In this document: positions 24,214-39,169 of the stretch, in pieces
Layout: every line of letters starts with the position of its first letter
Numbering within the stretch: position 1 is the stretch's first letter
Assembly (NCBI GenBank): GCA_041695085.1
Contig: JBGFRO010000020.1
Location: forward strand, 130,732-194,731
Direction: 5' to 3'
DNA: 64,000 nucleotides
DNA from: Bacteroidota bacterium
GTDB taxonomy: Bacteria; Bacteroidota; Ignavibacteria; UBA10030
The notes under the pieces: model-generated
Seen by the model: only the letters and a program-made list of their open reading frames with translations
Databases searched by the model: none
Told to the model about the DNA's origin: nothing
Made by a program: the position numbers and the translations under genes

Positions 24214-24380
24214 AGTGCAGCGCAGCGGAGAATACAGCACTCTTTGTCACTCAAGTTGATCGCTTTTCCAAAGTAGGAGGCTGAAAACGCCGATAAAATG
24301 GATTCTCGCGGATCAACTATTTCAAACTGATGTTACGCAAACAGCCATTTTCGATGTCTCCGGGGTTCCTTTTGGATGTT

Positions 24381-24404
24381 ACTTTCTTTGATGCCAAAGA
24401 AAGT
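24381..24404. repeat. perfect 10-bp-arm hairpin preceding hairpin-unit locus A
   Basis: actttctttg atgc caaagaaagt. Confidence 0.5.
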
Positions 24405-24420
24405 AACCAAAGAAAGCTTT

Positions 24421-24580
24421 CCGAAATCGTAACGCACGCGAACGAGCAGCCTCCCCACAGCCCGTTGATTTCGGCCTCGGAGAGCATTGCAACTGATTGT
24501 CAGGAGTGTACGTGGCCGAAATCAAAACGCACGGGAGAGGGCTGCCCGCGCACAGCGCCAACGATTTCGGAGGCCTCTGC
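24421..24580. repeat. tandem pair of CCGAAATC..(~40 nt)..GATTTCGG hairpin units, locus A
   Basis: Unit 1 is CCGAAATCGtAACGCACG...GATTTCGG (24421-24474). Unit 2 is CCGAAATCAaAACGCACG...GATTTCGG (24516-24570). Homologous to 47699-47844. Confidence 0.6.
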
Positions 24581-24677: not shown

Positions 24678-25022
24678 TTACTTATTCCATCCCAACTGTT
24701 GTCGGGCTGCGTCGGACATCCGGCTCGGCGTCCACTCCGGTTGCCAGACGATGCGCACGTCCGCATCACCTACACCGGGAATCTTCTTCACACGATCCTT
24801 CACTTGCTGAGAGATCATGGAACTGGCCGGACAGCCGGGAGAGGTGAGAGTCATCTTCACCCCGACCCAATCGTCAACAATCGTAACGCCGTAGACCAGG
24901 CCGAGGTCAACAATGTTGACGGGAATCTCCGGGTCGTAACACTCCTTCAACGCCTCGTAGATAGCTTCTTGTGTGATCGGTTGTTTGTTGAGATTTTCCA
25001 TCATTTGTACCTTTATGCACAA
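24678..25022 (-). CDS. DUF59/MIP18-family Fe-S cluster assembly factor (SufT-like)
   Basis: 114 aa with motifs DPEIPVNIVDLGLVY and TSPGCP. Confidence 0.8.
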   Translation of the reverse strand: MCIKVQMMENLNKQPITQEAIYEALKECYDPEIPVNIVDLGLVYGVTIVDDWVGVKMTLTSPGCPASSMISQQVKDRVKKIPGVGDADVRIVWQPEWTPSRMSDAARQQLGWNK

Positions 25023-25083: not shown

Positions 25084-26508
25084 TCACACTACTATATACT
25101 TCCGAAACAATCGAATCCCTGCGAGCAAGAACACCGTGAGCGGGAATCCAAGCAACACCGCGCCGCTGATCACCCGACCGGTAACGACTGACAACGGCTC
25201 TTCCTCATACAAAAACTCCGGCAGCTTCTCATACTCACGAAACTGCGCCTTCTGAAGGATTTTTGGCATGAAAAAGTCTTTCCATTCCTCGTGATATTCC
25301 TCCACTTGTGCCAGGAAATGCTTGTAGCGGTCAACACCACTTCCGGCAATGTCATTCACAATGTCCTGTGCAACGATGGCGGGTGAGAGAAACCGCAGCG
25401 CGCGGATGACCAACTGCTGCCGCTCCAACTGACTCCGATAGCGTTCTAAAACTGGCGCGATCATTCGCTCGACCTCCTCATTCACAACCGCACGCATCGC
25501 GGCGAAATTACGCGTGTCAATGCTATCGCCGCGCGCAAGCTCGGGATGATCCTCAAAGTATTTCGCCAACAGTATGCTTCCTTGCTCGGATGCTTCTTTC
25601 GACGCCCGCCGCATCGCATCAATCAGCTCTACGCGTGAAGGAACGGGATACAACGTCTTCGCCGCGAGATTAAAGACCGTCGGTAAGACGATAACGACCG
25701 CTAACCAAACAACGGCGAGTACCGTGGCATTCGCTGCCGATGAGCGACCGAACGAGACAACAAACAGCGCAATGCTGAACCACAGAGCGCCATACACGAC
25801 AAGAAACAGCAGGAGCAAAGCAAGTTTCGTTATGGATTCTCCCGTAAATGAAACCGTCCCGCTGAAAAGAACGCCAAGAACCGCAATCGCCGCTACACCG
25901 GTGGTCAGCACAACAAACCGTAGCAGAAAACGGACGGCGACGAGTCGTTTCAGAGAAACGGGATTGGAGAGAAGAAGACCTAATGTGCCCGATTCTTTAT
26001 CCGATGCGGGAATGTTGTAGGCGAGCGCGAGAATGAGAAGCGGATATAAAAAGATAAGAACAAATGCTAAATCGAATTTGCCGGTGAGAAGTCGAAGAGG
26101 ATTTTCAATCTCCTGTGCGGTGAGAATGGCTTCTCTGGAATCTGTTGAGATCTTGAGATAGAACGGATACAGATCGCTTTGTCCCACCGACACGACGGCT
26201 AAAGGTCCCGGAGGTAACACGGCGTACCTATTTGCAATCCGTCTTCCTGCTGCTCCGGGGTCGCGCGGATCCAAGAAGGCCGGTATGGTCAGGTCACCAC
26301 GGTCGAGTGCAGGGATCAGCGATTTCATCGAATCAATGCGCGCAGATTCTTCTGCGAGCGCACCGGCTATCGCGTCATTCTGAAACTTCACCCACTCCGC
26401 ACCGTTCCAGATGGCAAACACTGCGCAGAGTGTAAAGATGAGAAGCAGCAATCCAACTGCCCAATCGGAAGTTAAGAGTTTCCATTCATACGTGAAAAGT
26501 TTCTTCAT
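25084..26508 (-). CDS. ABC-2-type transporter permease, DUF3526 family
   Basis: 474 aa with an N-terminal TM, a large extracytoplasmic loop and a C-terminal TM bundle. Paralogous to 26788..28206. Confidence 0.6.
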   Translation of the reverse strand: MKKLFTYEWKLLTSDWAVGLLLLIFTLCAVFAIWNGAEWVKFQNDAIAGALAEESARIDSMKSLIPALDRGDLTIPAFLDPRDPGAAGRRIANRYAVLPPGPLAVVSVGQSDLYPFYLKISTDSREAILTAQEIENPLRLLTGKFDLAFVLIFLYPLLILALAYNIPASDKESGTLGLLLSNPVSLKRLVAVRFLLRFVVLTTGVAAIAVLGVLFSGTVSFTGESITKLALLLLFLVVYGALWFSIALFVVSFGRSSAANATVLAVVWLAVVIVLPTVFNLAAKTLYPVPSRVELIDAMRRASKEASEQGSILLAKYFEDHPELARGDSIDTRNFAAMRAVVNEEVERMIAPVLERYRSQLERQQLVIRALRFLSPAIVAQDIVNDIAGSGVDRYKHFLAQVEEYHEEWKDFFMPKILQKAQFREYEKLPEFLYEEEPLSVVTGRVISGAVLLGFPLTVFLLAGIRLFRKYIVV

Positions 26509-26787
26509 AGGACATTCTCCTGAACGATCTGTTTTGGGCTAAGTAATTTCCATTCGTCTTCTGCTTGTTCCCACGCCTGCCCGATGCCTACTTCCCGGTG
26601 GGCACGGCAGTCAAGCTCTGCGTGGGAACAGACTCACTGGCGCTCAGCGTCAGTTATCGAACGGGGAAGTGTTGCATCTCCGCAACGCTCGTGCCACTTT
26701 TCTGCTATGAAAATATCCCTGAATAGACAACCGACAGTTCATTTTCATCAGGGGTGGTGAACCCCCGATTCATGACCGCTTTTCCAT

Positions 26788-28206
26788 TCAGACAATGTGC
26801 ATTTTTCGTATTGCAAGAATCACACCGGCAAACGCAATCCCACACCACACAGTTAGGATGAAGATGCTCAGCACGTACTCCTTCAGCACCCATCCAACCG
26901 TAGGGCCTTCGTACACAAAGTCCGGAACCTTTTGCCACAACTCCGGTCCGGCAAGATACTGGCCGCTCTCCGTCTTTCCTCGCTGGAAGATGTCGTCATT
27001 CATAATTTTCTGAATGACACGCCGATAGTCTTCCCCGGCGCGAACGAAATGACGGTGATGATGCCAGTCTGTCCCCGCCAATCCCATCGAAAGCGATTGC
27101 ACCGGCAGAAGCGGCGCAACCAGACCGCAGACTTGGTAAACTGTCATCTGCCTCTCAAAGAGATCGAAGAGTCTGCCGTAATGACGATCGTACACCCTGT
27201 AGCCGTGTTCTTCCCCCGCCTGCAGCGCGAAGCCGCTGAGGTTCACTGGTAAAGCCTGAAGGGAATCAACGCCGTAGCGCCGAAACAGCTCCTGCTTCTT
27301 GGCTTCGATCAACGCTTGTAGCTCAGTCTGATCATCCAGATCCTTTTTCATCGCCGTTTTGAATTCGATGCTCGAAGGAAGGGGATGGATGACTCTGGAG
27401 AGATCCGAAGCGAGACGCGGTGCAATCAGCGAGTTGGCGATCCAGAATGAGAGCAGCACAACGAGCGCAACGCGTGACCCGCCTTCGGGGGGCACTGCAG
27501 CCGACACCGTAAGGGCAACACCGACAATGACACCGAGGTAGAGCACATACACAACGACGAGCAGAACATAGCGAACGAATCCCTCCAATCCTTCCGCACC
27601 GCCTGCATACAACATCACCGCTGCAGCCCCAAGGATTACGGCGGGGATGAGAATAACGGCAAGTCCGCTCGTTACGCCTATGGCTTTGCCGAGTGCAAGC
27701 ACGCGTCGGTCAACGCCGAGACTCAAGAGCTGTCGCAACGTCCCTTGCTCACGTTCACCGGCAAATGCGCCAAATGTCAGAAGAATAATCAGAAGCGGAA
27801 GAAGCAGTTGCATCACGGCGGCAGCGGTCATTTCGCCGAAGCGCTGCACAGCCGTTGCATCCTGTGCAGGACGATAGAGAAAATCATTCTGATAATGCGC
27901 TTCGAGCCAAACCGTGACGCCGACGTACGGATCGAGTCCGGCATCGAGAACGGAAAGGACGTTCTTTGGCTTGAACGCATAGACGCCGTAGTGCGCGGCG
28001 GAGTGGGGATTCTTCTGGCCTTGATCGAGCCATCGCTCGCGCTCCGCTGCGCGTGCCGCCTCGTGTTGCGCACTGATGTCGGCATAATGGATCAGTCCGA
28101 TGATGAGCGAAAGCGTAAGTAAGCCCAGCACTGCTGCCGCCGACCATCGAAAGCGGCCGTCGCGCAGCATTTCGGTGAATTCTTTCTTTGCGATTCGAGT
28201 CAGCAT
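26788..28206 (-). CDS. ABC-2-type transporter permease, DUF3526 family (paralog)
   Basis: 472 aa with the same architecture. RBS aaggaga lies 8 nt upstream of the ATG. Confidence 0.6.
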   Translation of the reverse strand: MLTRIAKKEFTEMLRDGRFRWSAAAVLGLLTLSLIIGLIHYADISAQHEAARAAERERWLDQGQKNPHSAAHYGVYAFKPKNVLSVLDAGLDPYVGVTVWLEAHYQNDFLYRPAQDATAVQRFGEMTAAAVMQLLLPLLIILLTFGAFAGEREQGTLRQLLSLGVDRRVLALGKAIGVTSGLAVILIPAVILGAAAVMLYAGGAEGLEGFVRYVLLVVVYVLYLGVIVGVALTVSAAVPPEGGSRVALVVLLSFWIANSLIAPRLASDLSRVIHPLPSSIEFKTAMKKDLDDQTELQALIEAKKQELFRRYGVDSLQALPVNLSGFALQAGEEHGYRVYDRHYGRLFDLFERQMTVYQVCGLVAPLLPVQSLSMGLAGTDWHHHRHFVRAGEDYRRVIQKIMNDDIFQRGKTESGQYLAGPELWQKVPDFVYEGPTVGWVLKEYVLSIFILTVWCGIAFAGVILAIRKMHIV

Positions 28207-28226
28207 TGATGTTCTCCTTAAATTGT

Positions 28227-28253
28227 GTAGGTCGGATTGTCAATCCGACCTAC
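28227..28253. repeat. perfect 13+1+13 palindrome GTAGGTCGGATTG T CAATCCGACCTAC (intercistronic, 2 nt after TonB-receptor stop)
   Basis: Exact inverted repeat. An identical copy lies at 31099-31125 and a related one at 42626-42651. Confidence 0.8.
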
Positions 28254-28255
28254 CT

Positions 28256-30604
28256 TTACATTACGTACTTCAGTGAAAACCCTCCGTAGAAACTCCGCGC
28301 TGGCGCGGGATGATAGTACCGTCCGCCGAAAGCGTTAATAGCGAGGAACGAGACATATTTCGTACTCAGCGCGTTTTCGACTCCCGCAAAGGCGTCCAGC
28401 TCAAATGCGCTCAACACCCGCGTTCTCCAGCCGGCTTTTCCGCTGAGCAGGCGGTACGCCGAGATGTCCACATCGTTCGCGTTGGTGATGTACCGTTTAT
28501 CGTAATAGCTGAATGTCCAGTGCGTGTATGCGCCGAAGTTCGTCGTGGCATCGAGACCCACAACGAGCACGAGGGGAGAAATGCCGGGAATCTTCTTGCC
28601 CGAGAAATCTTGGGTTTGAGCAGGATTCGCATCGTTTCGCCTGATAAACGTGCCGAAGCGGAAGTTATGGTATGTGTAACTGACAAACGGCTTCACCAGT
28701 GAGACGGTCGCCTGCGGATCGTTGATCGCAAAGTACAAAATCGCCGCCTCGACGCCTTTCTGATTTGCGGAGCCGGAGTTTTCGTAGGTCAGTTTTCCAC
28801 CCGCAAGCGTTCTGCTGATGATGATGTTGTCGAGCAGAAATTGGAACGCCGAGAGATAGAAGTTCAGCCGGTTGTTTAATGCAGTTCCCCGCATGCCAAT
28901 CTCGTAATTCGTTCCCGTCTCAGGAGTCAGGTTGGCGTTGATCTGTCCGGTTACGGCTGTGCTGATTTCGCTGTTGGTCGGTGGCCCAAATCCCTGACTG
29001 ATGCTGGCGTGAAGGGCAAGTGTTGAACTCATCTTGTACACAAGGGCAACGCGCGGAACAAGTTTGGGCGAAAATGAGACCGAAGCGGATTGATCGGGAT
29101 CGCCGGGTGGGTTGAAGAGGTCGAGAACGTCGTAGTGGAGCTTATTGTAACTCATGCCGAGCGTCAGGAGCAGCTCCTGGGTCAGCTCAAGTTCCGCCTG
29201 GGCAAAGAGAATGTACTGGACGGTGGTAACATCCGTATCAACCATCATATTTCCCGGCTTGCCGTTCACATTGGCGTACTCCTTCTCTGTGGTAACGTCG
29301 CGTTGATACTCGCCGCCTGCGGTGATGCGGCTTTTAAAAGAGAACAGCTCAGGTTTCCACACAAAGCGCGTTCTTCCTCCGTAGCTGCTGTAAGTCGAGC
29401 GGAAGTATCCACTGTTGAATTGTGATGTGCCGTACGGATGGTCAACATCTGCAAATAAGCTGTACGCGGAGGTAATGTTGGAAACGGCTTCCGAGATGTC
29501 GTACTGGTGGGAGATTCCGACGCTTGTGGATTTTCGCGTAACGCGCGGATCGAGTGTCGGAACAGCAGGAAGCACTTGGCGTGGATTCGCATCGTACTCC
29601 GCCTTTGTGAGCGCGCCCGGAGACTGGAACTCGGCATCGGCGTGCAGCAAGAGCGCGGAGACAGTCCGATTTTCCGACGGGAAAAAGATCGCGTTCGCGC
29701 TGAGAAGCTTGCGATACGTACTGCTCTGCTTTTCCCTATACCCGCGGTAGTACTGATCCGCATACGACAGTGAGAGATTTGCGTCCTGCAGTCCGGAGTT
29801 GAGTGAGACACCACTTCGTCGCAGTCCAAAGGAGCCGGACTGTACCCCTAGTCCGACGCTTCGGTCGCCGTATGACGCACGGGCCGCGCTCAAGATCATC
29901 ACACCGCCCGTTCCTGCGCCGTAGATGCTTCCAGCAGGACCTTTAAGGACTTCAATATTGCCGATCACCGACGGCTCAAACAGATCGTAGTTGGTGTTTC
30001 CGCCCGCTCCCGTCATCGGAATGTCGTTCCAGTACGCCTTAATGCCGCGTACGCCAAAGGGGGAGCGCAGCAGACTGCCGCGGATGGAGAGCCGACTGCT
30101 TCCTCCCGGCATCTGCGATTCCATCCGAACGCCGGGAATGGTGTTCAAGGCGGGAAGGATTGAACTGTTGTCATATCGGCGGATCTGTTCGGCGGTCAGC
30201 ATACTGATTGAGCCTGCCGTCTCAATGAGTTTCCGGTTTGTTTCATAACCAACCACAGTAACTTCACTCAGCAAGACTTGTGTGGCTTCCAGAAGGATGT
30301 TTAAACGGCTTGTCTTCTCGTCAACCGGAACGGTCACTGTGCGATAGCCAACGTAGGAGATGCGGAGTTGTTCGATCCGTGTGCCGGTGCTGAGCGAGAA
30401 TTCCCCTTTCTCATCGGTCGTTGTTCCGATTGTGGTGTTCGGCACAACGACGTTCGCGCCGATGAGTGGCTGTTTCGTATAGTTGTCGATCACCCGACCG
30501 GTGATCGTGGTTTGCGCGAACGCGGCAACCTGAATGATTGCCGCAACAAATGATAGAAGAATGAGTCTCATAGTCATTCCTTTTTTAAGAGTGTTTGTTC
30601 TCAC
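28256..30604 (-). CDS. TonB-dependent outer-membrane receptor with N-terminal carboxypeptidase-regulatory-like domain
   Basis: Signal peptide, a CarbopepD_reg-like domain (ITGRVID..PLIGANVVVPNT..GEFS), a plug domain and a 22-strand barrel. Ends ..LKYVM, lacking the aromatic C-terminal residue typical of these receptors. Confidence 0.85.
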   Translation of the reverse strand: MRTNTLKKGMTMRLILLSFVAAIIQVAAFAQTTITGRVIDNYTKQPLIGANVVVPNTTIGTTTDEKGEFSLSTGTRIEQLRISYVGYRTVTVPVDEKTSRLNILLEATQVLLSEVTVVGYETNRKLIETAGSISMLTAEQIRRYDNSSILPALNTIPGVRMESQMPGGSSRLSIRGSLLRSPFGVRGIKAYWNDIPMTGAGGNTNYDLFEPSVIGNIEVLKGPAGSIYGAGTGGVMILSAARASYGDRSVGLGVQSGSFGLRRSGVSLNSGLQDANLSLSYADQYYRGYREKQSSTYRKLLSANAIFFPSENRTVSALLLHADAEFQSPGALTKAEYDANPRQVLPAVPTLDPRVTRKSTSVGISHQYDISEAVSNITSAYSLFADVDHPYGTSQFNSGYFRSTYSSYGGRTRFVWKPELFSFKSRITAGGEYQRDVTTEKEYANVNGKPGNMMVDTDVTTVQYILFAQAELELTQELLLTLGMSYNKLHYDVLDLFNPPGDPDQSASVSFSPKLVPRVALVYKMSSTLALHASISQGFGPPTNSEISTAVTGQINANLTPETGTNYEIGMRGTALNNRLNFYLSAFQFLLDNIIISRTLAGGKLTYENSGSANQKGVEAAILYFAINDPQATVSLVKPFVSYTYHNFRFGTFIRRNDANPAQTQDFSGKKIPGISPLVLVVGLDATTNFGAYTHWTFSYYDKRYITNANDVDISAYRLLSGKAGWRTRVLSAFELDAFAGVENALSTKYVSFLAINAFGGRYYHPAPARSFYGGFSLKYVM

Positions 30605-31098
30605 TATTGGTGATGCAAGTTGAACATCGCTTACCTGAGGAGCAGGCAGTTTCGATTTACGGGGGGACCGCGGTCAAAAAGTTGATCACATTCCGAGAGT
30701 TGACAAACGTTGTTATCGTTACGAACGGGAAAACACGATTCAGGTTGGGCAATCTCGTTATTATTCTGCAGCGGTTGGTCTAATGCACGGTGCATCAGTG
30801 CCGTGCAAAGGGGGCATTGGAAGCCTGAAGCGGTGGCGTTCTTGTCCGATGACTCGAACAACAGCGTAGCTCCTCCTTCTTTGTGCAGAGAGATTGGATG
30901 CCGGTGGAACACGGCGAGAAACGTCTGCTCCAACGACAGAAGGAGACTGAAAACACTAACGAGGTGGATAATCGTTGAGTGTGAAAACATCATCACAAAG
31001 ATGTTCGAACATCAAATCACAAGATAGGCGGCCGGACTCGACGAGTGGAATTTCCAGCGTGAGCCAGCTGCCTTTTCTCCTGAAGGAGGAGAAGTGCT

Positions 31099-31125
31099 GT
31101 AGGTCGGATTGTCAATCCGACCTAC
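31099..31125. repeat. second identical copy of GTAGGTCGGATTGTCAATCCGACCTAC palindrome (27 nt after MerC-like stop)
   Basis: Exact match to 28227-28253. Confidence 0.8.
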
Positions 31126-31151
31126 GGTATGATCGGGGAAGACATCCCGAT

Positions 31152-31604
31152 CTACTTACATCTCACACACTCCTTACACAAACGCCAGTTTTGAATGTGC
31201 GAGAGGGCAATCATCATTGCTCCGGCAGGGAGCAGAAGCCGTTCAGACTCCACAAGCAGAAATTTCGCGCCGACGATGATTACCGCTCCCGCAAAAAAAT
31301 ACCACAACGCACTCCATTTGCGGTGATGCAACCGAAAGCCGCGCGTGAGGGCGAACATCCCGATCGCCAGCGATAAGCCAATCATTACCCACTCGAAGGT
31401 TTCTTCCGCAAGGAATCCTCTTGCTAACCAGGGGGCCGCCGTCAGCAAAAGCGGCAACAAGCCGCAGTGCAGAACACACAGCGTGGATGCCGAGACGCCA
31501 AGCAGGTCATACACTCCGCCGATGCTGATGCGTCGGCCTGAAGTCCCTGCAGAGGCTTTTGGCTGGAACATTTCGAATTCCATCACCTTGTGACTCCTTT
31601 TCAT
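31152..31604 (-). CDS. MerC-like small membrane protein
   Basis: 150 aa with four predicted TM helices and a Cys-containing first helix (GVSASTLCVLHCGLLPLL). Start overlaps the upstream ABC ATPase stop (ATGA). Confidence 0.45.
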   Translation of the reverse strand: MKRSHKVMEFEMFQPKASAGTSGRRISIGGVYDLLGVSASTLCVLHCGLLPLLLTAAPWLARGFLAEETFEWVMIGLSLAIGMFALTRGFRLHHRKWSALWYFFAGAVIIVGAKFLLVESERLLLPAGAMMIALSHIQNWRLCKECVRCK

Positions 31605-32329
31605 TCGAGCATATGTCTGAGATAAATGTTTTCCAAATCCGCGTGACCTATGTCGGCTGTGTCGAGAACTTCCACTAACTTTCCGTGCCTCATAATGCCT
31701 ACGCGTGTGCCTGTCTCCTTTGCGCGGAAAAGATCGTGCGTGGCCATCAACACGGCAACGCCCTGATTGCTCAGGTGCTTGAGCAGCTTTGAGAATTCAT
31801 TGCTTGCTTTCGGATCGAGTCCCGATGTCGGCTCATCCAACAGTAATGCTTCGGCCTTCTTCGCAAGAGCAATGGCGATTCCGACCTTTTGCCGCATCCC
31901 CTTGGAGTATGTGGCGATGCGCTGATCGGCAACGGCGGGGTCGAGTCCGACTTGCTCGAAGAACTTCAGATAATCTGTTCGCGTGTAATGATCGTGACCG
32001 GCCAGTGCGGTGAAGTATTCGAGATTCTCCAAACCGCTGAGATTGCGATAGAGTATCACCTGCTCCGGGATATAGGCGACGTATTTCTTTGTCTCAAGCG
32101 GATATCGTGTAACGTCGAGATTCTTGATCTTCGCTGTACCGGCGGTCGGCGCGATGAAATTGAGAAACAGGTTGATCGTTGTTGTTTTGCCCGCGCCGTT
32201 GGCGCCAAGGAGACAGAAAATCTCTCCCGGCTGAATGCGCAGATTCAAATCGGACAATGCCGGTGTACCGTTGTACGACTTCGAGAGATTGACGGCTTCA
32301 AGCATACAGATTCTCCTTTCACATTTCAA
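31601..32329 (-). CDS. ABC transporter ATP-binding protein
   Basis: Walker A GANGAGKTT, signature SKGMRQK, and Walker B LLLDEPTSGLD. Confidence 0.85.
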   Translation of the reverse strand: MKCERRICMLEAVNLSKSYNGTPALSDLNLRIQPGEIFCLLGANGAGKTTTINLFLNFIAPTAGTAKIKNLDVTRYPLETKKYVAYIPEQVILYRNLSGLENLEYFTALAGHDHYTRTDYLKFFEQVGLDPAVADQRIATYSKGMRQKVGIAIALAKKAEALLLDEPTSGLDPKASNEFSKLLKHLSNQGVAVLMATHDLFRAKETGTRVGIMRHGKLVEVLDTADIGHADLENIYLRHMLE

Positions 32330-34580
32330 ACGTGTAGAGATACTTCAACAATATCGCCCGCGCATTGGTCAATGGCAGCCGCGGCGAGCTGGGCATAAGT
32401 CTGTCTCTGTCTGTATTGATGCCTTCATTATACACCAACCACAGATCGTGTCCCTCGTTGAAGTTGTACCGCAGGCGGACATTGCTGATAACGATGGATG
32501 CGGCGCTGTTGTACTGCAGAAAGAGAGCAGCAGAGGCTCTCGTGTTGAGCGCTGTCTGAATGCGCAACTGAAGCAGGTGCGAATCGTATCGCTGTTGCCG
32601 CCTCTCGAAGCGAATCACGTTCAGCTCGTACTGCGGACGCAGCTCCAAATGACGGGAGAGATTCCAAATTGCGCTGAGCTTCAGTGTAGTTTTCTTCCCG
32701 TCGTAGAATGTCCCGTAGAAGAGATCGAGACTCGGCCTGAAGAACCACCGATCCGGCGGTGTTGCGGCAAGCCACACATCGTGGTACCAATAGCTTCCCG
32801 CCGGAACCGAAGCGCTGCTCGATAGCGAAAAGGCCTGCGGCACGTTTTCGTAGTAATGATCCGTGGAGATGAGCACTGTTGCCGCGTTTTGCCACTCAAG
32901 CTGCACAAAGGGATGAAGCCAAACATAATCGGCACGGTGATCGGGATTCCGCACATAGGCGAATCCCCAATGGCCAATCCATATTCGCCGCAACGTCTCG
33001 TGATCTTTGAGAAACCATTGGTAGTCGAGATTATTCCGGACAAACGAAAAATCACGCCGTGGGTCGAATCCAAGGCCCGGCTCAAACTCGGCGTCCGACC
33101 AGGTGATTTTGGTGAGGTAGCTGAACCCTTCGAACACGCGACGCTGCCATTCGAGGGCAATTCGTCCGGCAGTGAATGGTTTCTGGAACGATGGCTTCAG
33201 GCGCGCCCGGTCCACTGTTTGAGCCCAGGTAAATGTGACAAACTCGTCTCCAACGATATTGAGAATGCCATCGAGCGCGTAGGCGTAGTTCCATCCGCCG
33301 TCAGCGTTGATGCGCGAGGTCATCATCCCACCGACATACGATTGCGCGTTGATCACCTGCCTGCGTACCCGGAGGACGCCGAAGTTTTCCGGTGAAAGCC
33401 CTTTCTCGCGTGCGGTTTGCATCGTCAGCGCTCCAAGGTCCCAGTTTCCCAGTCGCCCGATCACGCGCGCGCCGCCAAGGACGCGAATCGGCTCGCCGCG
33501 ATCGTTTAAACCGATCCGCCGACTGTGAAAGAGCATGCTGCGGGCCGTTCCCATATTCAGATTGAAAATCCCCGCCCGTTCCAGAAAGAACTGCCGCTTC
33601 TCCGGAAAGAAGAGCGGAAAGCGCGTGAGATTGATCTGCTGATCATCCGCTTCAGCCTGAGCAAAATCGGTGTTCAGTGTCAGGTCGAGCGTCAGGTTGC
33701 TAACAATCGGATACTTCAGATCGATGCCGATCTCGCGACTCAGCGAGCTGATATGGCGATATGTCGTTCGGGTTGGATCAAGTTCGGCGCGTCTATCGAA
33801 TCCACCGACCGCGTATGGAGTAACATAGATCGGCGTTTTCTGCTGAATGCCCCGGAAGACAACAGGGTAGCCGCGGGACGGTCGCTCGATGGAAGACGTC
33901 GGCGGGACGTCGGGGAAGGTCTGCCGTTCGTTGGATACGGCAATCCAGCGATAGACCGTCATTCCCATCGTTACCTCTCCGTTTATCGAACGGAACCGGA
34001 GACTCGAAAACGGAATGCGCATCTCGACAAACCATCCCGAATCGGTCACCGTTGTGGCAACATCCCAAAACGTGTTCCAGCTATTGTCGCGTGAGGCGCT
34101 GCCCCCTTCTCCGTCGTTCGAGATCGTCTGATCAATGCGGATTCCACCGGGCGTCGTAATAAAGCGGACGGCATTCTCCCTGTCATAAAACGTATCTAAC
34201 ATAAATCCGAACGTATCATCGCCGCTCCAGCGGTCACGGTACAGCGAGTTCAAACGGATGGTCGAAGGATCGCGTGTGTAGCATCTGCCTGAGACATAAA
34301 CGAAATTGTCGTCGTAGGCAACGCGGATCTCCGTACGCTCGCTCGCCTCAGCACGATACACCGGCTGCGTAACCGTGAGCGGCAGGGGAGGTATGGTTTG
34401 CCACGCCGGTTCGTCGGGAAGACCGTCGAGCACGATTGGAGCGGACACACGCAAAAGAACGAGCGGGTCTTGGGCGGGCACAGCGATGTCGGTCGCCAGC
34501 AGGATGGATAGCAGACCCAGTGGCTGGAGTAAAGGGTACTTTATTATCCACCGACGAGCTGAATCAGTTTGACAGCTCAT
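32319..34580 (-). CDS. DUF5916/CBM9-like domain outer-membrane protein, paralog 2
   Basis: Probable start ATG at 34580 ([29 protein letters not shown].. signal), overlapping the WD40 stop as ATGA. The longer ORF to 34715 would overlap WD40 by 139 nt. Contains the FFPEKRQFFLERAGIF block. Confidence 0.7.
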   Translation of the reverse strand: MSCQTDSARRWIIKYPLLQPLGLLSILLATDIAVPAQDPLVLLRVSAPIVLDGLPDEPAWQTIPPLPLTVTQPVYRAEASERTEIRVAYDDNFVYVSGRCYTRDPSTIRLNSLYRDRWSGDDTFGFMLDTFYDRENAVRFITTPGGIRIDQTISNDGEGGSASRDNSWNTFWDVATTVTDSGWFVEMRIPFSSLRFRSINGEVTMGMTVYRWIAVSNERQTFPDVPPTSSIERPSRGYPVVFRGIQQKTPIYVTPYAVGGFDRRAELDPTRTTYRHISSLSREIGIDLKYPIVSNLTLDLTLNTDFAQAEADDQQINLTRFPLFFPEKRQFFLERAGIFNLNMGTARSMLFHSRRIGLNDRGEPIRVLGGARVIGRLGNWDLGALTMQTAREKGLSPENFGVLRVRRQVINAQSYVGGMMTSRINADGGWNYAYALDGILNIVGDEFVTFTWAQTVDRARLKPSFQKPFTAGRIALEWQRRVFEGFSYLTKITWSDAEFEPGLGFDPRRDFSFVRNNLDYQWFLKDHETLRRIWIGHWGFAYVRNPDHRADYVWLHPFVQLEWQNAATVLISTDHYYENVPQAFSLSSSASVPAGSYWYHDVWLAATPPDRWFFRPSLDLFYGTFYDGKKTTLKLSAIWNLSRHLELRPQYELNVIRFERRQQRYDSHLLQLRIQTALNTRASAALFLQYNSAASIVISNVRLRYNFNEGHDLWLVYNEGINTDRDRLMPSSPRLPLTNARAILLKYLYTFEM

Positions 34581-35599
34581 CGCACGTACACCTCCACGTG
34601 TCCTGATTCTGTCCCGGTTGCCAGTAGGCGATCGTCCGGCGACCACGCAAGCAGGCTCACCCCGCTGTCGGCGCGCGCGTAAGCTATTGGTTGTTGATTC
34701 TTCTCTGGACGCCACAGCAACACGAGACCATCTTGATCCGCGGAAGCAAGATGTGCGCCGTGGTGTTGGTAGGCCAGCGCGCTGATAAAATTCTCATGCC
34801 CCCTCAGAGAGATCGGTCTCGTTCCCGCCGGGCCTTTGCCCGAGCAGTCCCAGATTATAACTTCGGGGCTGCCGCCGGTGGCGAGGTAGCGGCCGGAACA
34901 ATCCCATGCCAGCTCGCGCACTTTGGTGGGATAGCCCCACATCTGCAAATCCTGCCTCGTGGCGATGATCCAAAAATGCACCGTGGAATCCTGATCGCCG
35001 GTCGCGAGAAATCTTCCATCCGGACTCCACGCTAACACCAGACTCGAACCTTTCCATTCAAGACGTTCAGCGCGCCCCGGTTGATGCGGGAGGCACAACG
35101 TGACGCCGTTGTACGCGCACGCAGCGAGCACCTTGTCTTGGGGATGCCATGCGATATCCGCTATCGTGCTGGGATGATCGCCAAACGAGCTGAGCAGTTG
35201 GCCAGTCCGATCCCAAAACCGAACTTCTTTGCCCGCAGCGGAAGCAAGCACCTCGCCCGCCGGGCTCCACGCGACGTGTTCAACCCATGCCGCGCCGCCT
35301 TCACACGCCAGCAACTCCTCACCGCGTAGCGTGTCCCACCAGCGCACTTTGCCGTCTTGGCCTGCACTCGTGAGTACGGTGCCGTCAGCATTCCATGACA
35401 ACGAACTGGTGCCGAATCTGTGGCCGGCGAAGTGGTGCACGATACGGCCGGTCTCACGCTCGAAGATTGTGATTGGACCGCTCACCGCAGCGGCAGCGAG
35501 AGAGCGGCCGTCGCGTGACCATATAAGATCGATGACGTGGTCTTCGATTTCTCTGTGCCAGCTTGCCGTGAGCGGCTTCACGTTTTTTATGCGAGGCAT
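34577..35599 (-). CDS. WD40-repeat beta-propeller protein
   Basis: 340 aa with repeated ..H...[15 protein letters not shown] motifs. Start overlaps the COG0523 gene by 13 nt. Confidence 0.75.
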
Positions 35600-36936
35600 G
35601 ACCGGAACCCCTCGTTCAGCTTGGCGCGATCCAATTTGCGACCGATAAAGATCAGCGAATTTCGGCGCTCCTCATTGCCCCATGGCCGATCGGGGCGGCC
35701 GTCGAACAACATGTGCACGCCTTGAAACACGAAACGCTCTTCTTGATTCTTAATGCTGAGCACGCCTTTCATGCGAAAGATATCCGTGCCCTTCGTGGTC
35801 AATAACTCTCGCAGCCATTCGTTGAGCTTTTTCTCGTCTAAATCGCCGGGTGTGGTGATGCCGACGGAACTCACTTCCTCGTCGTGCTCGTGATCGGGCT
35901 TGTACTCGCGCGTCAGCAGCGGAGCGAGCGGGCCGTGCACGCTCTGCAATTTCGCGGAAAATTCGTCGGGATGATGTTGCGTGAACAGCGCGTAGTTGCC
36001 GGGTTCGTCGATGTGAATGTTGAAACGGGTCTCACCCTCGGCAAGCCTCAGCTCACGTAATTTCTTTTCCGGCCGCAAAACATCATTCGCCGCCGTGGCG
36101 TGTTCCTTCTCGGAAAACAGCAAGACGGCCTCCATCTGCAATGCTTCTAATTCTGTGGCCGAAGCTTCCGGCAACGGCAGCAGGGCCACGTTCATTGTAG
36201 GATCGGGGCCGGGATGCATGATCCATTCATACTCGCCGCGCTGGAGCAGGTACACCCCCGCCCATTCAAACGGATATTCCGGCTCCATGAATTTCGGATC
36301 GACTTCGAGAGCGCGCGCGACGTTGAACCCGCCTACGTTGAGGATTTTGTCCATCTCGATTCGCGCGTCGCGCGTGCGATAAATCTTCGTCGCGGCGTTC
36401 ATGCCGCGGATGCGCGCTTCGAGCTTGTCTAACTCCTCAGGAGTGACGAGATCAATCTTGTTCAACAAAATCACGTCGGCAAACGCGATCTGCTCCTTTG
36501 CTTCGTTGCTGTCATCGAGGTGCTGCCAAATGTGTTTTGCATCAACCACCGTTACGATGGCATCGAGCGCCAGCTTGCTTCGCATTTCATCATCGACGAA
36601 AAACGTTTGCGCCACCGGGCCGGGATCGGCAAGACCCGTGGTTTCGATTAAGATGTAATCGAATTTGTCCTTGCGCTTCATCAAGTTGCCAAGGATGCGA
36701 ATGAGATCGCCGCGCACGGTGCAGCAGATGCAGCCGTTATTCATCTCGAAAATCTCCTCTTCTGCGCCGATGACCAAATCCTGATCGACGCCAACTTCGC
36801 CAAACTCGTTTTCGATCACGGCGATGCGCTTGCCATGGTTCTCGGTGAGAATGCGATTGAGCAGTGTGGTTTTGCCTGCGCCGAGAAAGCCAGTGAGCAC
36901 CGTCACCGGGACGCGGCCTGAATTATGTGTGGTCAT
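35587..36936 (-). CDS. COG0523-family G3E GTPase (CobW/ZigA-like zinc metallochaperone)
   Basis: Walker [19 protein letters not shown] metal-binding CxCC motif, and a His/acidic-rich linker (..PDHEHDEE..). Confidence 0.85.
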
Positions 36937-36944
36937 GAGTATCT

Positions 36945-37075
36945 CCTCCTATGTTTGTGAATAATTGTACCTGTCCGCTCACGCAACCGCGCGCATAATG
37001 TCCTCGCGATGCACGTCATCGAGTGGTTTCTGAATTTTGAACTGCCGGGTCTTACCTGGCCCGGCAAAGACCGCA
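36945..37075. repeat. ~130-bp direct repeat, copy 1 (remnant 3' end of small ORF plus RBS, upstream of the COG0523 start)
   Basis: About 88% identical to 37563-37690. Minus-strand translation ..GPGKTRQFKIQKPLDDVHREDIMRAVA* parallels the C-terminus of ORF 37593..37853, followed by a conserved ggagat RBS region. Confidence 0.65.
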
Positions 37076-37143
37076 GCATATCAAGCATGGACTATCGGCA
37101 AGTGATCATCGCGATCGCAATCCCGACAGCGATTTCGGCGCCC

Positions 37144-37596
37144 CTACAACGTGATGACCTGATCCGGCGGGTTTCCCGCCAGGGCGGCGTAGAGGTCTGG
37201 GAAGCAGCCGACCGACACACCCTCCACAGTGCCCTTGGGCTGGCAATCCGCGGGCGCCTTCAGGCCAAGACCCATGGTCGGATCGCACCATCTGGGTGCC
37301 CCCTGGGCCAGTCCTCGTTCCAGCACGCACATGTCGCACATCATCAGCAGAATGCCCTTGTCCCGGGCAACGCTGGCCAGCCGCTCGCCGAGCGGGTCGC
37401 CGCGCCTCAACATGAACACGTTGTCGTCGAAGAAGAACATGCCCACCACATCGACGCCGTGCGTGCCCGCTTCGAGTTGCGGCAAGATCATCTGGCCGAC
37501 TTTGTAGCTGGCTGACCTCGGCGTCGCTAACACATAAGCTACTTTCATGGAAGTATCTCCTCGTGTGTTTGTGAACAATTGTACCTGTCCGCTCAC
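37144..37596 (-). CDS. DsrE/DsrF-like family protein
   Basis: 150 aa; the N-terminal half fits the DsrE fold pattern (MKVAYVLATP..HGVDVVGMFFFDDNVFML.). The overlapping plus-strand ORF 37009..37515 has no recognisable features. Confidence 0.5.
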   Translation of the reverse strand: MSGQVQLFTNTRGDTSMKVAYVLATPRSASYKVGQMILPQLEAGTHGVDVVGMFFFDDNVFMLRRGDPLGERLASVARDKGILLMMCDMCVLERGLAQGAPRWCDPTMGLGLKAPADCQPKGTVEGVSVGCFPDLYAALAGNPPDQVITL

Positions 37597-37690
37597 GCGA
37601 CCGCGCGCATAATGTCTTCACGACGCACGTCCTCGAGCGGTTTGTGAATTTTAAGCTGCCGGTTCTTACCAGGCCCGGTAAAGACCGCAA
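37563..37690. repeat. ~130-bp direct repeat, copy 2 (3' end of ORF 37593..37853 plus intergenic/RBS region)
   Basis: See copy 1. Confidence 0.65.
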
Positions 37691-37853
37691 TGACGGTCTC
37701 CAATGGCGGACAGCCTGGTTCGCTGCATTGCAACTGCGTTACCATAATCGTCGCCTCCTCGGGAAGCGACAGACATTCCGACACCATTCGTTTCAACTCC
37801 AACACTTTGGTGTTGTCATCATAACGCCGGGTTACCATCGGGTTTATGTTCAT
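37593..37853 (-). CDS. hypothetical 86-aa protein (Cys-containing), first gene of the small-ORF/DsrE-like pair
   Basis: ORF with a CSEPGCPP motif. Its conserved C-terminal 27 codons are duplicated as a remnant upstream of the COG0523 gene. Confidence 0.4.
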   Translation of the reverse strand: MNINPMVTRRYDDNTKVLELKRMVSECLSLPEEATIMVTQLQCSEPGCPPLETVIAVFTGPGKNRQLKIHKPLEDVRREDIMRAVA

Positions 37854-37869
37854 GTGATCCTCCGGTTTT

Positions 37870-38631
37870 TCATTGTAACATACCTTCTAGGACGCCGACG
37901 AGCAGCATCAGCCCCGCGCCTAAGCCGATGACCACACCTTGTCCATATTGAGCGCTCAGCGCGGATTTATTGTGCAGCGTCGGAATCAAGTCCGAAGCTG
38001 CGATGTAAATAAAACTGCCGGCGGCAATCGGCAGCAGATAGATCATCGGCGCTTGGAGCCACGTGCCGAAGAGCAGCGTGGCCGTAACACCGAACACGCA
38101 CGTGAGTGAGCAGAGAAAATTCAGCCATACCGCACGCCGCGGGGAATAGCCGCCATAGACCAGCACGCCCAGGTCGCCAATCTCCTGCGGAATCTCGTGC
38201 GCAATGATCGCCGCGGTCGTGGTCCAACCCAACGTCGGGCTGACCAGAAAGCCGCCCGCGATCAACGTTCCGTCGATAAAGTTGTGCGCCGCGTCGCCGA
38301 TGAGATTCATCGGCGCCATGGGCAACACCTTGCCACCCGGCGGAGGCGCTTCATGATAATGCTGCCAGCGCACCACTTTTTCGAGAAAGAAAAATAGCAG
38401 GATGCCCACGATGACGAACAACGACACCGTGCGGATTGAGCCGGTCTCCTGCACGGCGTGGGGAATTAAATGAATGAACGCTTCGCCAAGCAACATGCCG
38501 ACGGCCAGACCGACGAGAAACTGCAAGAGCTTTCGCAACGCCCGGGGCCGCAGGAGCAAACTGAAGGCGCCGACGAATGACACCACGCTGACTAGTGCGC
38601 CGGCTGCCAGCGCGGACAACCAAATGGACAT
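37870..38631 (-). CDS. zupT-like: ZIP-family metal (zinc) transporter
   Basis: 253 aa with 8 TM helices and a HEIPQEIGD motif. Confidence 0.85.
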   Translation of the reverse strand: MSIWLSALAAGALVSVVSFVGAFSLLLRPRALRKLLQFLVGLAVGMLLGEAFIHLIPHAVQETGSIRTVSLFVIVGILLFFFLEKVVRWQHYHEAPPPGGKVLPMAPMNLIGDAAHNFIDGTLIAGGFLVSPTLGWTTTAAIIAHEIPQEIGDLGVLVYGGYSPRRAVWLNFLCSLTCVFGVTATLLFGTWLQAPMIYLLPIAAGSFIYIAASDLIPTLHNKSALSAQYGQGVVIGLGAGLMLLVGVLEGMLQ

Positions 38632-38647
38632 GAGAAATTGTGCTCCG

Positions 38648-39169
38648 TCAAGATTTCGGATAACTGTTCTGAGCTTGCGTTACCGCATCACGCTCAAACC
38701 GCTGAAAATGGCAACCAGCCAGCAAGCCTTGGGGGGGAGCATACGCGCCGGTCAGCAATACCTCTTCGAGGTAATCGTAAATTGCGGTTACGTGTGCTGA
38801 GGTATTGATCGAGTGCAGCCAGATCGTATGCCCGTCGAACAAAATCAGCACGACGTTCGCCAGCTGGCACGGGCCGAGACAGCCGCTCACGGTCAAGTGA
38901 ACGCGAGAGCGCAGCTTGCGTTTGCGCCATTGCGCTTTGAACTCCTCCAGCGGCACGGGAGGGTTGCCCTTCTCAGTATTGCCGCAGCAGCAACCTTTGC
39001 AAACGAATAACTGTCCGTCGAGGAGACGGATGTTTTTCGTTGTGCCGTCGCTGTGTGTAACGTGTGTGAAACGGTCACACCGCGCTTGATCCAGAGCATC
39101 GTTGTAATTGTAGAACGTTCTGGAAAGAAAAGATTGATACGTCTCTCCACCTTTTGTTTTCTTGGTCAT
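38648..39169 (-). CDS. Cys-rich putative metal-binding protein (thioredoxin-like [2Fe-2S]/DUF1636-like)
   Basis: 173 aa with CKGCCCG and SGCLGPC clusters. Sits in the Zn cluster. Confidence 0.45.
   Translation of the reverse strand: MTKKTKGGETYQSFLSRTFYNYNDALDQARCDRFTHVTHSDGTTKNIRLLDGQLFVCKGCCCGNTEKGNPPVPLEEFKAQWRKRKLRSRVHLTVSGCLGPCQLANVVLILFDGHTIWLHSINTSAHVTAIYDYLEEVLLTGAYAPPQGLLAGCHFQRFERDAVTQAQNSYPKS

Follow-up and report, generated by a model that had tools for sequence, protein, structure and literature searches.

Nineteen co-directional genes occupy about 21 kb of the minus strand, from position 45374 to 24678, in a 64,000-nucleotide (nt) stretch of contig JBGFRO010000020.1 from a Bacteroidota bacterium of the class Ignavibacteria (GenBank assembly GCA_041695085.1); this whole stretch is called the window below, and the gene string the island. 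Here, we describe a comparative and structure-based analysis suggesting that the island is a mosaic of two separable conserved modules, an envelope module (Module A) and a cassette with a cytoplasmic metallochaperone core (Module B). On balance, we favor the interpretation, drawn from sequence comparison, structural models and analogy, that an ATP-binding cassette (ABC) ATPase and its DUF3526 permeases work in the manner of NosFY, together with outer-membrane barrels or TonB-dependent receptors (TBDRs), MerC-like and ZIP proteins, a COG0523-WD40 pair and CruR/CutF-like leader peptides, in the handling of a metal that is most likely zinc. Gene content, synteny, the differences in gene content between relatives and the motifs of the leaders were observed directly, and protein folds were taken from models.

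Comparison across genomes suggests that the conserved unit of Module A comprises a leader, the ABC ATPase, two DUF3526 permeases and a TBDR and/or a DUF5916 barrel, often accompanied by a MerC-like protein. Apart from the leaders, the corresponding genes of the window, with lengths in amino acids (aa), are as follows.

42660-44915, minus strand: DUF5916_2, D2 type, 751 aa, predicted outer-membrane barrel (Pfam DUF5916 and CBM9)
32319-34580, minus strand: DUF5916_1, D1 type, 753 aa (Pfam PF19313, 66.9 bits against a cutoff of 22.6; weak CBM9 match)
31601-32305, minus strand: ABC ATPase of the ABC-2/DrrA type, 234 aa (Pfam ABC_tran; best NCBIfam match the DrrA subfamily)
31152-31604, minus strand: MerC-like inner-membrane protein (Pfam MerC, 78.7 bits against a cutoff of 27.6)
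28256-30571, minus strand: TBDR1, TonB-dependent receptor, 771 aa (Pfam CarboxypepD_reg, Plug PF07715 and barrel PF00593)
26788-28206, minus strand: DUF3526a permease, 472 aa (Pfam ABC2_membrane_2 and DUF3526)
25084-26508, minus strand: DUF3526b permease, 474 aa, paralogous partner of DUF3526a (Pfam ABC2_membrane_2 and DUF3526)

A genome scan with a-type DUF3526 sequences returned 73 loci, cited here by number (L007 and so on), from Acidobacteriota, Gemmatimonadota, Planctomycetota, Bacteroidota, Rhodothermales, Myxococcota and other taxa; the peptide patterns used bias this sample toward one subfamily, and the neighbor counts are lower bounds because many contigs are short. The ABC-DUF3526a-DUF3526b core is present in nearly all 73 loci, with the ABC gene directly 5' of DUF3526a. 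TonB receptors lie within 3 kb in 15/73 loci, DUF5916 genes within 10 kb in 13/73 and COG0523 genes within 10 kb in 14/73. A MerC-like gene, detected with a home-made hidden Markov model, accompanies the core in 14/73 loci, or in 16 of 76 when loci found from the DUF5916 side are included, all with a C-x3-C motif. Additionally, a Cd/Zn-type P1B ATPase is encoded directly upstream of the ABC gene in 6/73 loci (6-7), and a MacB/FtsX plus DUF3299 module, which resembles the Zur-regulated PA4063-66 of P. aeruginosa, occurs in 4/73 (5 with L005). The core is plasmid-borne in Comamonas, Hymenobacter, Blastomonas and Methylocystis: the Comamonas endophytica plasmid carries a leader, a TBDR, the ABC gene and two DUF3526 genes, Hymenobacter canadensis has the same arrangement, and on the Blastomonas plasmid the order is ABC, two DUF3526 genes and TBDR. 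The nearest genome match to the window is a metagenome-assembled genome (MAG) of Ignavibacterium album (L007), whose DUF3526a permease is 82% identical.

The functional link between DUF5916 and the ABC/DUF3526 module that a first-pass annotation of this DNA had proposed is supported by these comparisons, which indicate an association that is real but clade-specific and that recurs across phyla. Proteins of the D1 type (>=51% identity to DUF5916_1) are encoded beside ABC/DUF3526 in L003, L004, L005, L046, L049, L075, L169 and L170, often directly 3' of MerC (D1/MerC pairs in L004, L005, L046 and L075), and those of the D2 type (37-47% identity to DUF5916_2) in L003, L005, L025, L028, L038, L043, L049 and L059. 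In L003, L043, L049 and L059 the D2 gene lies directly 3' of DUF3526b, the slot that is held by a TBDR in other loci. DUF5916 genes also abut or overlap core genes, with an overlap in L059, a 17-nt spacer in L043 and an overlap with ABC in L169. The suggested outer-membrane nature of the protein is likewise supported by an AlphaFold2 (AF2) model of DUF5916_1 (predicted local distance difference test, pLDDT, 81.7; predicted template-modeling score, pTM, 0.80), in which a signal peptide and a CBM9-like sandwich (residues ~40-245) precede a large barrel of ~22-24 strands (~252-749). Foldseek matched the N-terminal domain to CBM9 (TMt ~0.7) and the remainder to generic outer-membrane barrels only (TonB receptors, LptD and AlgE; TM ~0.3). 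The best-conserved DUF5916 motif, NTDFAQxEADxQQxNLTRFxLFFPEKRxFF, sits in an irregular, low-confidence segment of the model.

DUF5916 is a large family, with >5,000 relatives at E <= 1e-10 among 8,000 scored candidates, and it could be a chance neighbor with an unrelated role, for example in glycan metabolism as its CBM9 label would suggest. DUF3526 was found near none of 80 metagenome loci that encode other DUF5916 relatives (27-46% identity), and no neighbor of any kind recurs around these 80 loci, so the wider family gives no functional clue; furthermore, L007 lacks both barrels and retains the rest of the module. We nevertheless give this explanation very little credence, since the D1 and D2 clades recur by the core in Ignavibacteria, Rhodothermales, Bacteroidota and Gemmatimonadota, in genes that often abut or overlap permease, MerC or ABC genes, at a frequency far above chance placement. 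A recent duplication giving rise to DUF5916_1 and DUF5916_2 was considered and rejected, as the two are merely 26% identical. A third gene for a DUF5916 plus CBM9-like protein (742 aa; 12619-14847, minus strand), with 23-28% identity to the first two, is located 10 kb away from the island and brings the window to three DUF5916 paralogs.

The ABC complex had been taken for one of the metal-uptake type. This assignment does not fit its components: no gene between 24678 and 45374 encodes a domain, by Pfam, of a ZnuA-type (cluster A-I) binding protein or a ZnuB/FecCD-type permease, the ATPase is DrrA-like, and the permease model matches NosY only. The AF2 model of DUF3526a is all-helical (pLDDT 74), and in a Foldseek search of the PDB its top 11 matches, the sole significant ones, were all NosY, from NosDFY, NosDFYL and NosDFY-NosZ structures (PDB 7o0y, 7znq and 7qba; E = 5e-4 to 4e-2, TMt 0.47-0.62, 15-20% identity). 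The positive-inside rule places the loop between the first two transmembrane (TM) segments (TM1-TM2) and the DUF3526 domain, as predicted, in the periplasm. The His motifs PHSAAH, WLEAH and DWHHHRHF of DUF3526a fall in such putatively periplasmic loops and may bind metal; their consensus, PHxAAH, W(L/M)EAH and D..H(H/R)RHF, is kept from Ignavibacteria to Methylocystis and Comamonas (alignments A2, A5 and A6).

The likeness to NosFY extends to a NosY-like six-helix membrane fold, an ABC-2 (DrrA/NosF-type) ATPase, the lack of a binding protein and a periplasmic handling of metal. NosFY reportedly moves no substrate, according to cryo-electron microscopy (cryo-EM) work on NosDFY; ATP is said to drive periplasmic NosD in the delivery of copper from NosL to N2O reductase. 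Because no nosD, nosL or nosZ domains are found among the island genes, the ABC/DUF3526 complex is not a NosFY member, and the resemblance lies in a possible mode of action. The permeases also differ from NosY (~270 aa) in forming a heterodimer of ~470-aa proteins with two features that NosY lacks, a TM1-TM2 loop of ~85 aa with His residues and an additional helical DUF3526 domain spanning ~170 aa, and their partners are outer-membrane barrels rather than a periplasmic beta-helix protein. Taken together, the NosY-like core and the conserved His motifs suggest a mechanotransducing metal relay rather than a pump.

The first-pass annotation had further stated that no characterized metal system covers the arrangement. 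At the genetic level, the combination of a TBDR, an ABC-2 ATPase and two permeases has an analogue in Caulobacter crescentus ZnuK (CC1517) and ZnuGHI (CC1518-1520), which are Zur-repressed and induced by zinc depletion (Mazzon et al. 2014, PMC4176598). The likeness seen is one of gene set: in both cases a TBDR lies beside an ABC-2 ATPase and two permeases without a binding protein, and the same set, in the order TBDR-ABC-DUF3526-DUF3526 or ABC-DUF3526-DUF3526-TBDR, is found in Comamonas, Hymenobacter and Blastomonas. The genome scan patterns for DUF3526a returned no Caulobacterales, and the window has CruR-like leaders, DUF5916 barrels and a MerC-like protein in addition, all undescribed in Caulobacter. 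With ZnuABC/ZnuD the island would share its broad purpose, and TBDR2 (below) is weakly ZnuD-like, but a ZnuA-type binding protein and a ZnuB-type permease are missing from the island, and the 126-bit score of TBDR2 lies far below the ZnuD cutoff of 950.

The same annotation had described eight tightly packed genes, from COG0523 to DUF3526b, as a chain that begins at COG0523. Its eight family assignments were all confirmed by Pfam, as were the flanking ZIP, CDF and DUF59 genes, and several of its junctions proved correct: a 13-nt COG0523/WD40 overlap, ATGA overlaps at WD40/DUF5916_1 and ABC/MerC, and a short spacer between TBDR1 and DUF3526a (49 nt). The ATG of DUF5916_1 lies at 34580 and is followed by a signal peptide, in agreement with the JGI gene call. 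An 11-nt overlap between DUF5916 and ABC, as had been claimed, needs a TTG start at 32329; the ATG at 32305, which has GAAAGGAGA just upstream and is the start chosen by JGI and by homologs, leaves a 13-nt spacer. Two gaps had been overlooked, one of 580 nt between MerC and TBDR1, which contains a perfect 12-4-12 hairpin and a 121-aa leader open reading frame (ORF; orf121), and one of 279 nt between the two permeases. Moreover, nine further same-strand genes lie upstream of COG0523 and reach 45374 (a small ORF, DUF5916_2, CDF, another small ORF, TBDR2, orf173, ZIP, orf86 and SaoD/DsrE). In view of these gaps and upstream genes, tight packing holds for five genes, not eight, and the unit is longer than first described. 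The permease spacer (26509-26787) contains no repeat, Rfam match or similarity elsewhere; the corresponding spacer in L007 is ~51 nt.

Three relatives indicate how the island may have been put together. In L170 (~82-84% aa identity to the window), the DUF5916_2 ortholog is followed after 12 nt by the DUF5916_1 ortholog, and ABC comes next; homology to the window at the nucleotide level ends at the DUF5916_2 stop (42658) and restarts at 34466, ~115 nt inside DUF5916_1. Because DUF5916_2, DUF5916_1 and ABC are uninterrupted in L170, the simplest reading is that a stretch of ~8.1 kb, from CDF to WD40, was inserted between the two DUF5916 genes in the window lineage, and on this reading the ATGA overlap of WD40 and DUF5916_1 would be a lineage-specific junction. 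L169 (66%) has a compact operon consisting of a small leader ORF, a D1-type DUF5916 gene, ABC, DUF3526a and DUF3526b, without a TonB receptor, COG0523, WD40 or MerC. L007 has an orf122 ortholog, the first 108 nt of DUF5916_2, ~80 nt, ABC, MerC, a leader, TBDR1, DUF3526a, DUF3526b and DUF59; everything between 44807 and 32319 is missing, so both DUF5916 barrels and the cassette are gone and the orf122 ortholog is brought near ABC, with only the DUF5916_2 remnant and the ~80 nt between them. From these comparisons we infer, for Module A, the ancestral order orf122 leader, DUF5916_2, DUF5916_1, ABC, MerC-like, orf121 leader, TBDR1, DUF3526a and DUF3526b.

These comparisons bear on the proposal that the eight genes form a single operon and envelope machine, in which WD40, DUF5916 and the TonB receptor cooperate with a metal-uptake ABC transporter in metallophore use or zinc piracy. 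The overlaps from COG0523 to MerC are genuine, all the genes are co-directional and DUF5916 is a predicted outer-membrane barrel, all of which would be expected of such a machine. Against it, the WD40 protein lacks a signal peptide and is always paired with COG0523 instead of DUF5916 in the other loci; the WD40/DUF5916 junction is missing in L170, L169 and L007; the string is split by a leader ORF, a hairpin and the 580-nt gap; the ABC system resembles NosFY and comes without a binding protein; and no metallophore biosynthesis genes are present among the island and flanking genes scanned. The single-machine proposal, which we consider very unlikely, is already largely refuted by synteny. As to the conserved neighborhood that had been anticipated, the pairing of DUF5916 with ABC/DUF3526 recurs across phyla, and the adjacency of WD40 and DUF5916 is not conserved.

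The cassette, and the genes of Module B that it carries together with the leader orf127, are as follows.

34581-42659, minus strand: cassette of ~8.1 kb (CDF, orf127, TBDR2, orf173, ZIP, orf86, SaoD/DsrE, COG0523 and WD40), delimited by comparison with L170
41956-42588, minus strand: CDF cation-efflux protein, 210 aa (Pfam Cation_efflux; NCBIfam CDF above cutoff; weakly ZitB-like)
39230-41458, minus strand: TBDR2, TonB-dependent receptor, 742 aa (Pfam Plug PF07715 and barrel PF00593)
38648-39169, minus strand: orf173, Cys-rich (CKGCCCG...GCLGPC) and faintly DUF1636-like
37870-38631, minus strand: ZIP-family metal importer, 253 aa (Pfam Zip, E = 5e-39; weakly ZupT-like)
37593-37853, minus strand: orf86, short conserved protein without a Pfam match (motif L(Q/R)CxExGCPPxETVIA)
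37144-37548, minus strand: SaoD/DsrE-family protein, 134 aa (NCBIfam NF040913, 199 bits against a cutoff of 152)
35587-36936, minus strand: COG0523 GTPase, 449 aa (Pfam cobW PF02492, E = 5.9e-63, and CobW_C PF07683, E = 2.5e-24)
34577-35599, minus strand: WD40 propeller, 340 aa (Pfam WD40, E = 1e-40)

The COG0523 protein carries CICC, a CxCC metal-binding motif, in its translation, and its matches to the NCBIfam YjiA-type, CobW and ZigA models all fall under the cutoffs. The WD40 protein, whose N-terminus shows no signal peptide, is probably a cytoplasmic partner of COG0523. Its orthologs, 52-59% identical, come from Chloroflexota, Poribacteria and others, and in 5/5 other loci (L022, L079, L160, L161 and L162) the WD40 gene lies directly 3' of a ~450-aa COG0523 gene, mostly overlapping it; no DUF5916 gene adjoins COG0523-WD40 in any of the five. 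The placement of WD40 within an ABC/TonB envelope module is not supported by these observations. Homologs of orf173 and orf86 adjoin COG0523-WD40 in L022 (11581-14622, an acidobacterial MAG) and L162 (5847-9056, a metagenome contig), suggesting that orf173, orf86, COG0523 and WD40 are an unnamed recurring four-gene set that forms the core of Module B. A SaoD/DsrE homolog lies 3' of WD40 in L160, where the WD40 ortholog, the closest one at 78% identity, has a ribosomal protein L33 gene, a second COG0523 gene and a CDF gene (2742-5769) next to it. Additional copies of L33 are a classic marker of zinc limitation, and by analogy the L160 group resembles a typical zinc-starvation gene set. L162 brings together ZnuA, COG0523-WD40 and DUF3526 permeases; its four tandem ABC2_membrane_2 permease genes (10548-17056, minus strand), two of them with DUF3526, stand beside ZnuA and COG0523-WD40 and represent a divergent subfamily without the His motifs of the a-type permease.

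The association of COG0523 with WD40 is already known in outline. Prokaryotic genes of COG0523 subfamily 5, the subfamily that also holds most eukaryotic homologs, the human one included, are clustered with WD40-repeat genes and znuABC and in many cases follow Zur sites (Haas 2009, PMC2770081). The gene context in the window resembles that of this subfamily in having a COG0523 gene followed by a WD40 gene with zinc genes nearby, and the new part is the companions seen here, orf173, orf86 and SaoD/DsrE. Just upstream of COG0523, sequence reading and blastn revealed a 138-nt direct duplicate (36938-37075, minus strand) that is 89% identical to 37552-37689 and consists of the orf86 3' end, the downstream spacer and a ribosome-binding site. 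This duplicate suggests an ancestral orf86-COG0523 junction into which the SaoD/DsrE gene was later placed, with the repeat as its scar. Weak NCBIfam matches to models with (seleno)protein names were also noted, to a CobW-related selenoprotein for the window COG0523 and to a UxxU metal-binding model for the P1B ATPase of L045.

A third line of evidence comes from small ORFs at the heads of the gene groups.

45006-45374, minus strand: orf122, CruR/CutF-like leader at the head of the string, with a TM segment, a His-rich stretch, CHAC and C-terminal RAPPAA (sequence read)
41532-41915, minus strand: orf127, CruR-like leader 5' of TBDR2, with CFLC and C-terminal KRGPP... (sequence read)
30631-30996, minus strand: orf121, CruR-like leader 5' of TBDR1, with CPLC and C-terminal DRGPP... 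(sequence read)
45476-51083, plus strand: divergent unit made of a leader (45476-45928), a CzcB-like adaptor (46038-47588) and a CusA/CzcA-family RND pump (48003-51083)

All four window leaders have an N-terminal hydrophobic segment, a His-rich stretch and R-[AGS]-P-P within the last 14 residues, and 3/4 (orf122, orf127 and orf121) contain CxxC. The fourth, orf150p (45476-45928, plus strand), is a His-only leader with 13 His, no CxxC and the ending GRSPPVV. In L007 the positional counterpart of orf121 has diverged in sequence and keeps a TM segment, HHH, CYFC and RAPPA. Similar leaders precede ABC, TBDR or COG0523 genes in at least 14 other loci, including L005, L007, L014, L025, L042, L044, L045, L049, L075, L167 and L169. 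Matches to DUF2946 (PF11162) reached 12.8-14.7 bits against a threshold of 23.7 for two window leaders, orf122 among them, and two homologs from other loci, aligned to the model end; since they fall below the Pfam threshold, these peptides appear best named CruR/CutF-like, not DUF2946 members. The divergent RND unit and the minus-strand string share a 101-bp divergent control region (45375-45475) that separates efflux-type from uptake-type units.

In Bordetella, the leader ORF CruR (DUF2946, bp2923) precedes a TonB receptor gene, and its CXXC motif serves to sense copper. When copper relieves the arrest of translation at RAPP, Rho-dependent termination ahead of the receptor gene follows (PMC9426467). 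Rhodobacter CutF is similar, and CutF-like ORFs, not all of them copper-specific, precede Cus/Czc pumps and "TonB-like" proteins (PMC9973294). The window leaders share with these the form of small, exported or TM-anchored ORFs in first position, with CxxC or a His-rich stretch and a C-terminal R-A/G-P-P, and they are followed by a TonB receptor or Cus/Czc pump gene, the divergent RND unit fitting the context described for CutF (PMC9973294). They differ from CruR in the spacer 3' of the leader (59-90 nt here, 162 nt in Bordetella) and from both systems in occurring in other phyla (Ignavibacteria, FCB group, Gemmatimonadota and Acidobacteriota) and in contexts that look zinc-type. Neighboring ABC-2/DUF3526, MerC or DUF5916 genes are unmentioned in the CruR and CutF papers or their supplement text (PMC9426467, PMC9973294). 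By analogy, the window leaders may undergo metal-dependent translation arrest. The island looks like three leader-headed units: orf122-DUF5916_2-(CDF), orf127-TBDR2 to MerC, and orf121-TBDR1-DUF3526a-DUF3526b.

That the island serves metal homeostasis, as the first-pass annotation had held, is supported by the gene content of the window (CDF, ZIP, RND and COG0523) and by the neighbors of related loci; a metallophore system is not, no biosynthesis genes for one having been seen among the island and flanking genes scanned. The metal is probably zinc. Zinc is favored, by analogy, by the COG0523-WD40 pair, ZnuA, L33, ZIP, CDF, the Cd/Zn-type P1B ATPases and the PA4063-66-like modules, and further by the CzcB-like adaptor, the weak resemblance of TBDR2 to ZnuD and heme receptors (126 bits against NCBIfam ZnuD, NF038289, which is below the cutoff) and the precedent of Zur-repressed ZnuK/ZnuGHI. 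TBDR1 has PqqU as its best NCBIfam match (201 bits, far under the cutoff) and scores 20 bits against the ZnuD model with its cutoff of 950.

The same architecture could instead serve copper, with CruR-like leaders, a NosFY-like complex that moves periplasmic Cu(I) and a MerC-like carrier of soft metal. Both CruR and CutF sense copper, share the CxxC and RAPP layout and head TBDR or Cus operons (PMC9426467, PMC9973294), the sole structural relative of the permease is NosY of the copper-delivery complex NosDFYL, and membership in MerC comes with Cys motifs: the window protein has LCVLHC in TM1 and a CKECVRCK tail, the former conserved in 8 aligned homologs. We consider copper rather unlikely, however, in that the neighbors are of the zinc type (COG0523-WD40, ZnuA, L33, ZIP and CDF), the P1B ATPases are Cd/Zn-type and not Cu-type, the adaptor is CzcB-like and not CusB-like, the TBDRs contain no Cys and obtain very low scores with a copper-receptor model, no PCuAC, Sco, CopC, NosL or NosD copper chaperones were seen, and CutF-type leaders are not all Cu-specific (PMC9973294). 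The MerC-like gene is not a mercury-resistance gene; MerR, MerA and MerP/T are absent among the island and flanking genes scanned.

An inward direction of transport is suggested by the TonB receptors, ZIP, the MerC-like protein and COG0523, and export is allowed by the ABC-2 class and the efflux neighbors. Were ABC/DUF3526 an exporter, either in metal detoxification or in the secretion of a metallophore or chelate, DUF5916 or another barrel might act as the outer-membrane exit duct. The ATPase is indeed of the DrrA/ABC-2 exporter type, CDF, Czc-like RND and ZntA-type ATPases are common neighbors, DUF5916 has no recognizable TonB-receptor plug, and the Zur-regulated MacB system PA4063-66 of P. 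aeruginosa is an exporter active in zinc starvation. This alternative is in our judgment unlikely: the core lacks a membrane-fusion adaptor, NosFY is said, from the NosDFY cryo-EM work, to export no substrate, and a frequent partner is a TonB-dependent receptor, an import device. ZIP, MerC-like and COG0523 proteins likewise point inward, and Caulobacter ZnuGHI, if homologous, is Zur-repressed together with uptake receptors (PMC4176598).

The zinc-handling interpretation that we favor can be expressed as a sequence of steps, in which the direction, the metal, the contact between ABC complex and barrels and the function of the leaders are all what we infer. Under metal limitation, most likely of zinc, the metal or its chelate would cross the outer membrane via TonB receptors and/or DUF5916 barrels. 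The ABC ATPase and the DUF3526a/b heterodimer would act in a NosFY-like way, cytoplasmic ATP hydrolysis moving large His-bearing periplasmic domains; the DUF3526 domains would receive metal from the outer-membrane component and pass it on, rather than forming a classical binding-protein-dependent importer. MerC-like and ZIP proteins would then take the metal through the inner membrane, and COG0523 with its WD40 partner would distribute it to client proteins. The expression of each sub-unit would be set after initiation by its CruR/CutF-like leader, whose His and CxxC residues would sense periplasmic metal while the ribosome stalls at R[AG]PP.

Several observations weigh against this interpretation. 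The CruR and NosFY precedents both concern copper, exporters predominate among ABC-2 systems, and efflux genes (CDF, RND and P1B ATPases) are as frequent among the neighbors as uptake genes. The leaders lie under the Pfam DUF2946 threshold, and in the window the ABC ATPase and its DUF3526 permeases fall into different leader-headed units. Neither a TBDR nor DUF5916 lies within 3 kb in 33/47 loci that have >=3 kb of flank on both sides, and the partner TBDRs are heterogeneous, that of Hymenobacter scoring as a siderophore receptor, so the substrate may vary between lineages. The gene order of L170 would be explained equally well by a precise deletion there and by an insertion in the window lineage. 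Finally, no Zur/Fur box (AT-rich 7-1-7, GTTAT...ATAAC) was apparent by reading in the island spacers, including the one upstream of COG0523 where the first-pass annotation had suggested looking for one, although the motif of this phylum may differ, and no Fur-family gene was detected in the window by tblastn with E. coli Fur and Zur and B. subtilis Zur as queries.

Broader searches for regulatory signals gave a similar picture, with no Zur or Fur box recognizable in any locus. The Caulobacter-type Zur pattern TGTTATNNNATAACA is absent from all 165 loci scanned, a motif that may differ between phyla, and a scan of the plasmid loci that allowed one mismatch to TGTTATNNNATAACA gave two matches, both intragenic. 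Scans for promoters and terminators gave chance-level results, and Rfam detected no riboswitch or other RNA family in 24000-48500. A census of palindromes upstream of ABC in 67 loci returned only a genus-specific site in Singulisphaera. This site, TTACGATT-N5-AATCGTAA (L030 9049-9069, L031 9141-9161 and L033 9046-9066), is shared by three Singulisphaera genomes in otherwise diverged surroundings and lies just 3' of a promoter-like TTGCAA...TATCAT/TATGAT upstream of ABC-DUF3526. Its half-sites resemble those of the Zur box in B. subtilis, with their order swapped, and the site is a possible operator. Two hairpins and the gene at the 3' end of the string complete the features of the island.

31099-31125, no strand assigned: perfect 12-4-12 hairpin, GTAGGTCGGATT-N4-AATCCGACCTAC, 3' of MerC
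28227-28253, no strand assigned: second perfect copy of the 12-4-12 hairpin, between TBDR1 and DUF3526a
24678-25022, minus strand: DUF59/SufT-like protein (Pfam and NCBIfam)

The two copies are the only ones in the window, and both lie inside the gene string; the hairpin could serve as an attenuator or processing site, or represent a REP-like element. A related hairpin, GTAGGTCGAGCTTAAGCTCGACCTAC, is found 3' of DUF5916_2 (~42615-42640). DUF59 stands beside the permeases in L007 only (1/73 loci), and a role for it in the system was rejected on that ground. Downstream of DUF59, an element of ~100 nt (24378-24476) recurs with 83% identity in L007 (6830-6928), between MerC and the leader, and is probably a small mobile or repeated element.

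This locus offers leads on the question of how zinc and other metals pass from receptors in the outer membrane to the cytoplasm when no ZnuABC-type importer is present; for the Caulobacter ZnuGHI-type ABC-2 system, named in 2014, a literature search turned up no mechanistic study, nor did it find any paper naming DUF3526 or DUF5916. Already known are the COG0523-WD40 association and the genetic precedent for TBDR with ABC-2 in Caulobacter. New are a conserved, clade-specific association that links DUF5916 barrels and MerC-like proteins with a NosFY-like complex of ABC and DUF3526 proteins, the occupation of equivalent gene positions by D2-type DUF5916 and TonB receptors, the His motifs in loops predicted to be periplasmic, and CruR-like leaders in these phyla and contexts. 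Additionally, the companions orf173, orf86 and SaoD/DsrE could help to find clients of the COG0523-WD40 zinc-chaperone subfamily. We put forward, as a tentative possibility, that the two DUF5916 clades are new outer-membrane metal channels that can replace TBDRs and partner a NosFY-like metal relay under the control of zinc-sensing CruR-like leaders. If true, this would provide the first function for DUF5916 and DUF3526 and would represent a third way of coupling metal capture at the outer membrane to the inner membrane, besides binding-protein ABC importers and ZIP/NRAMP carriers.

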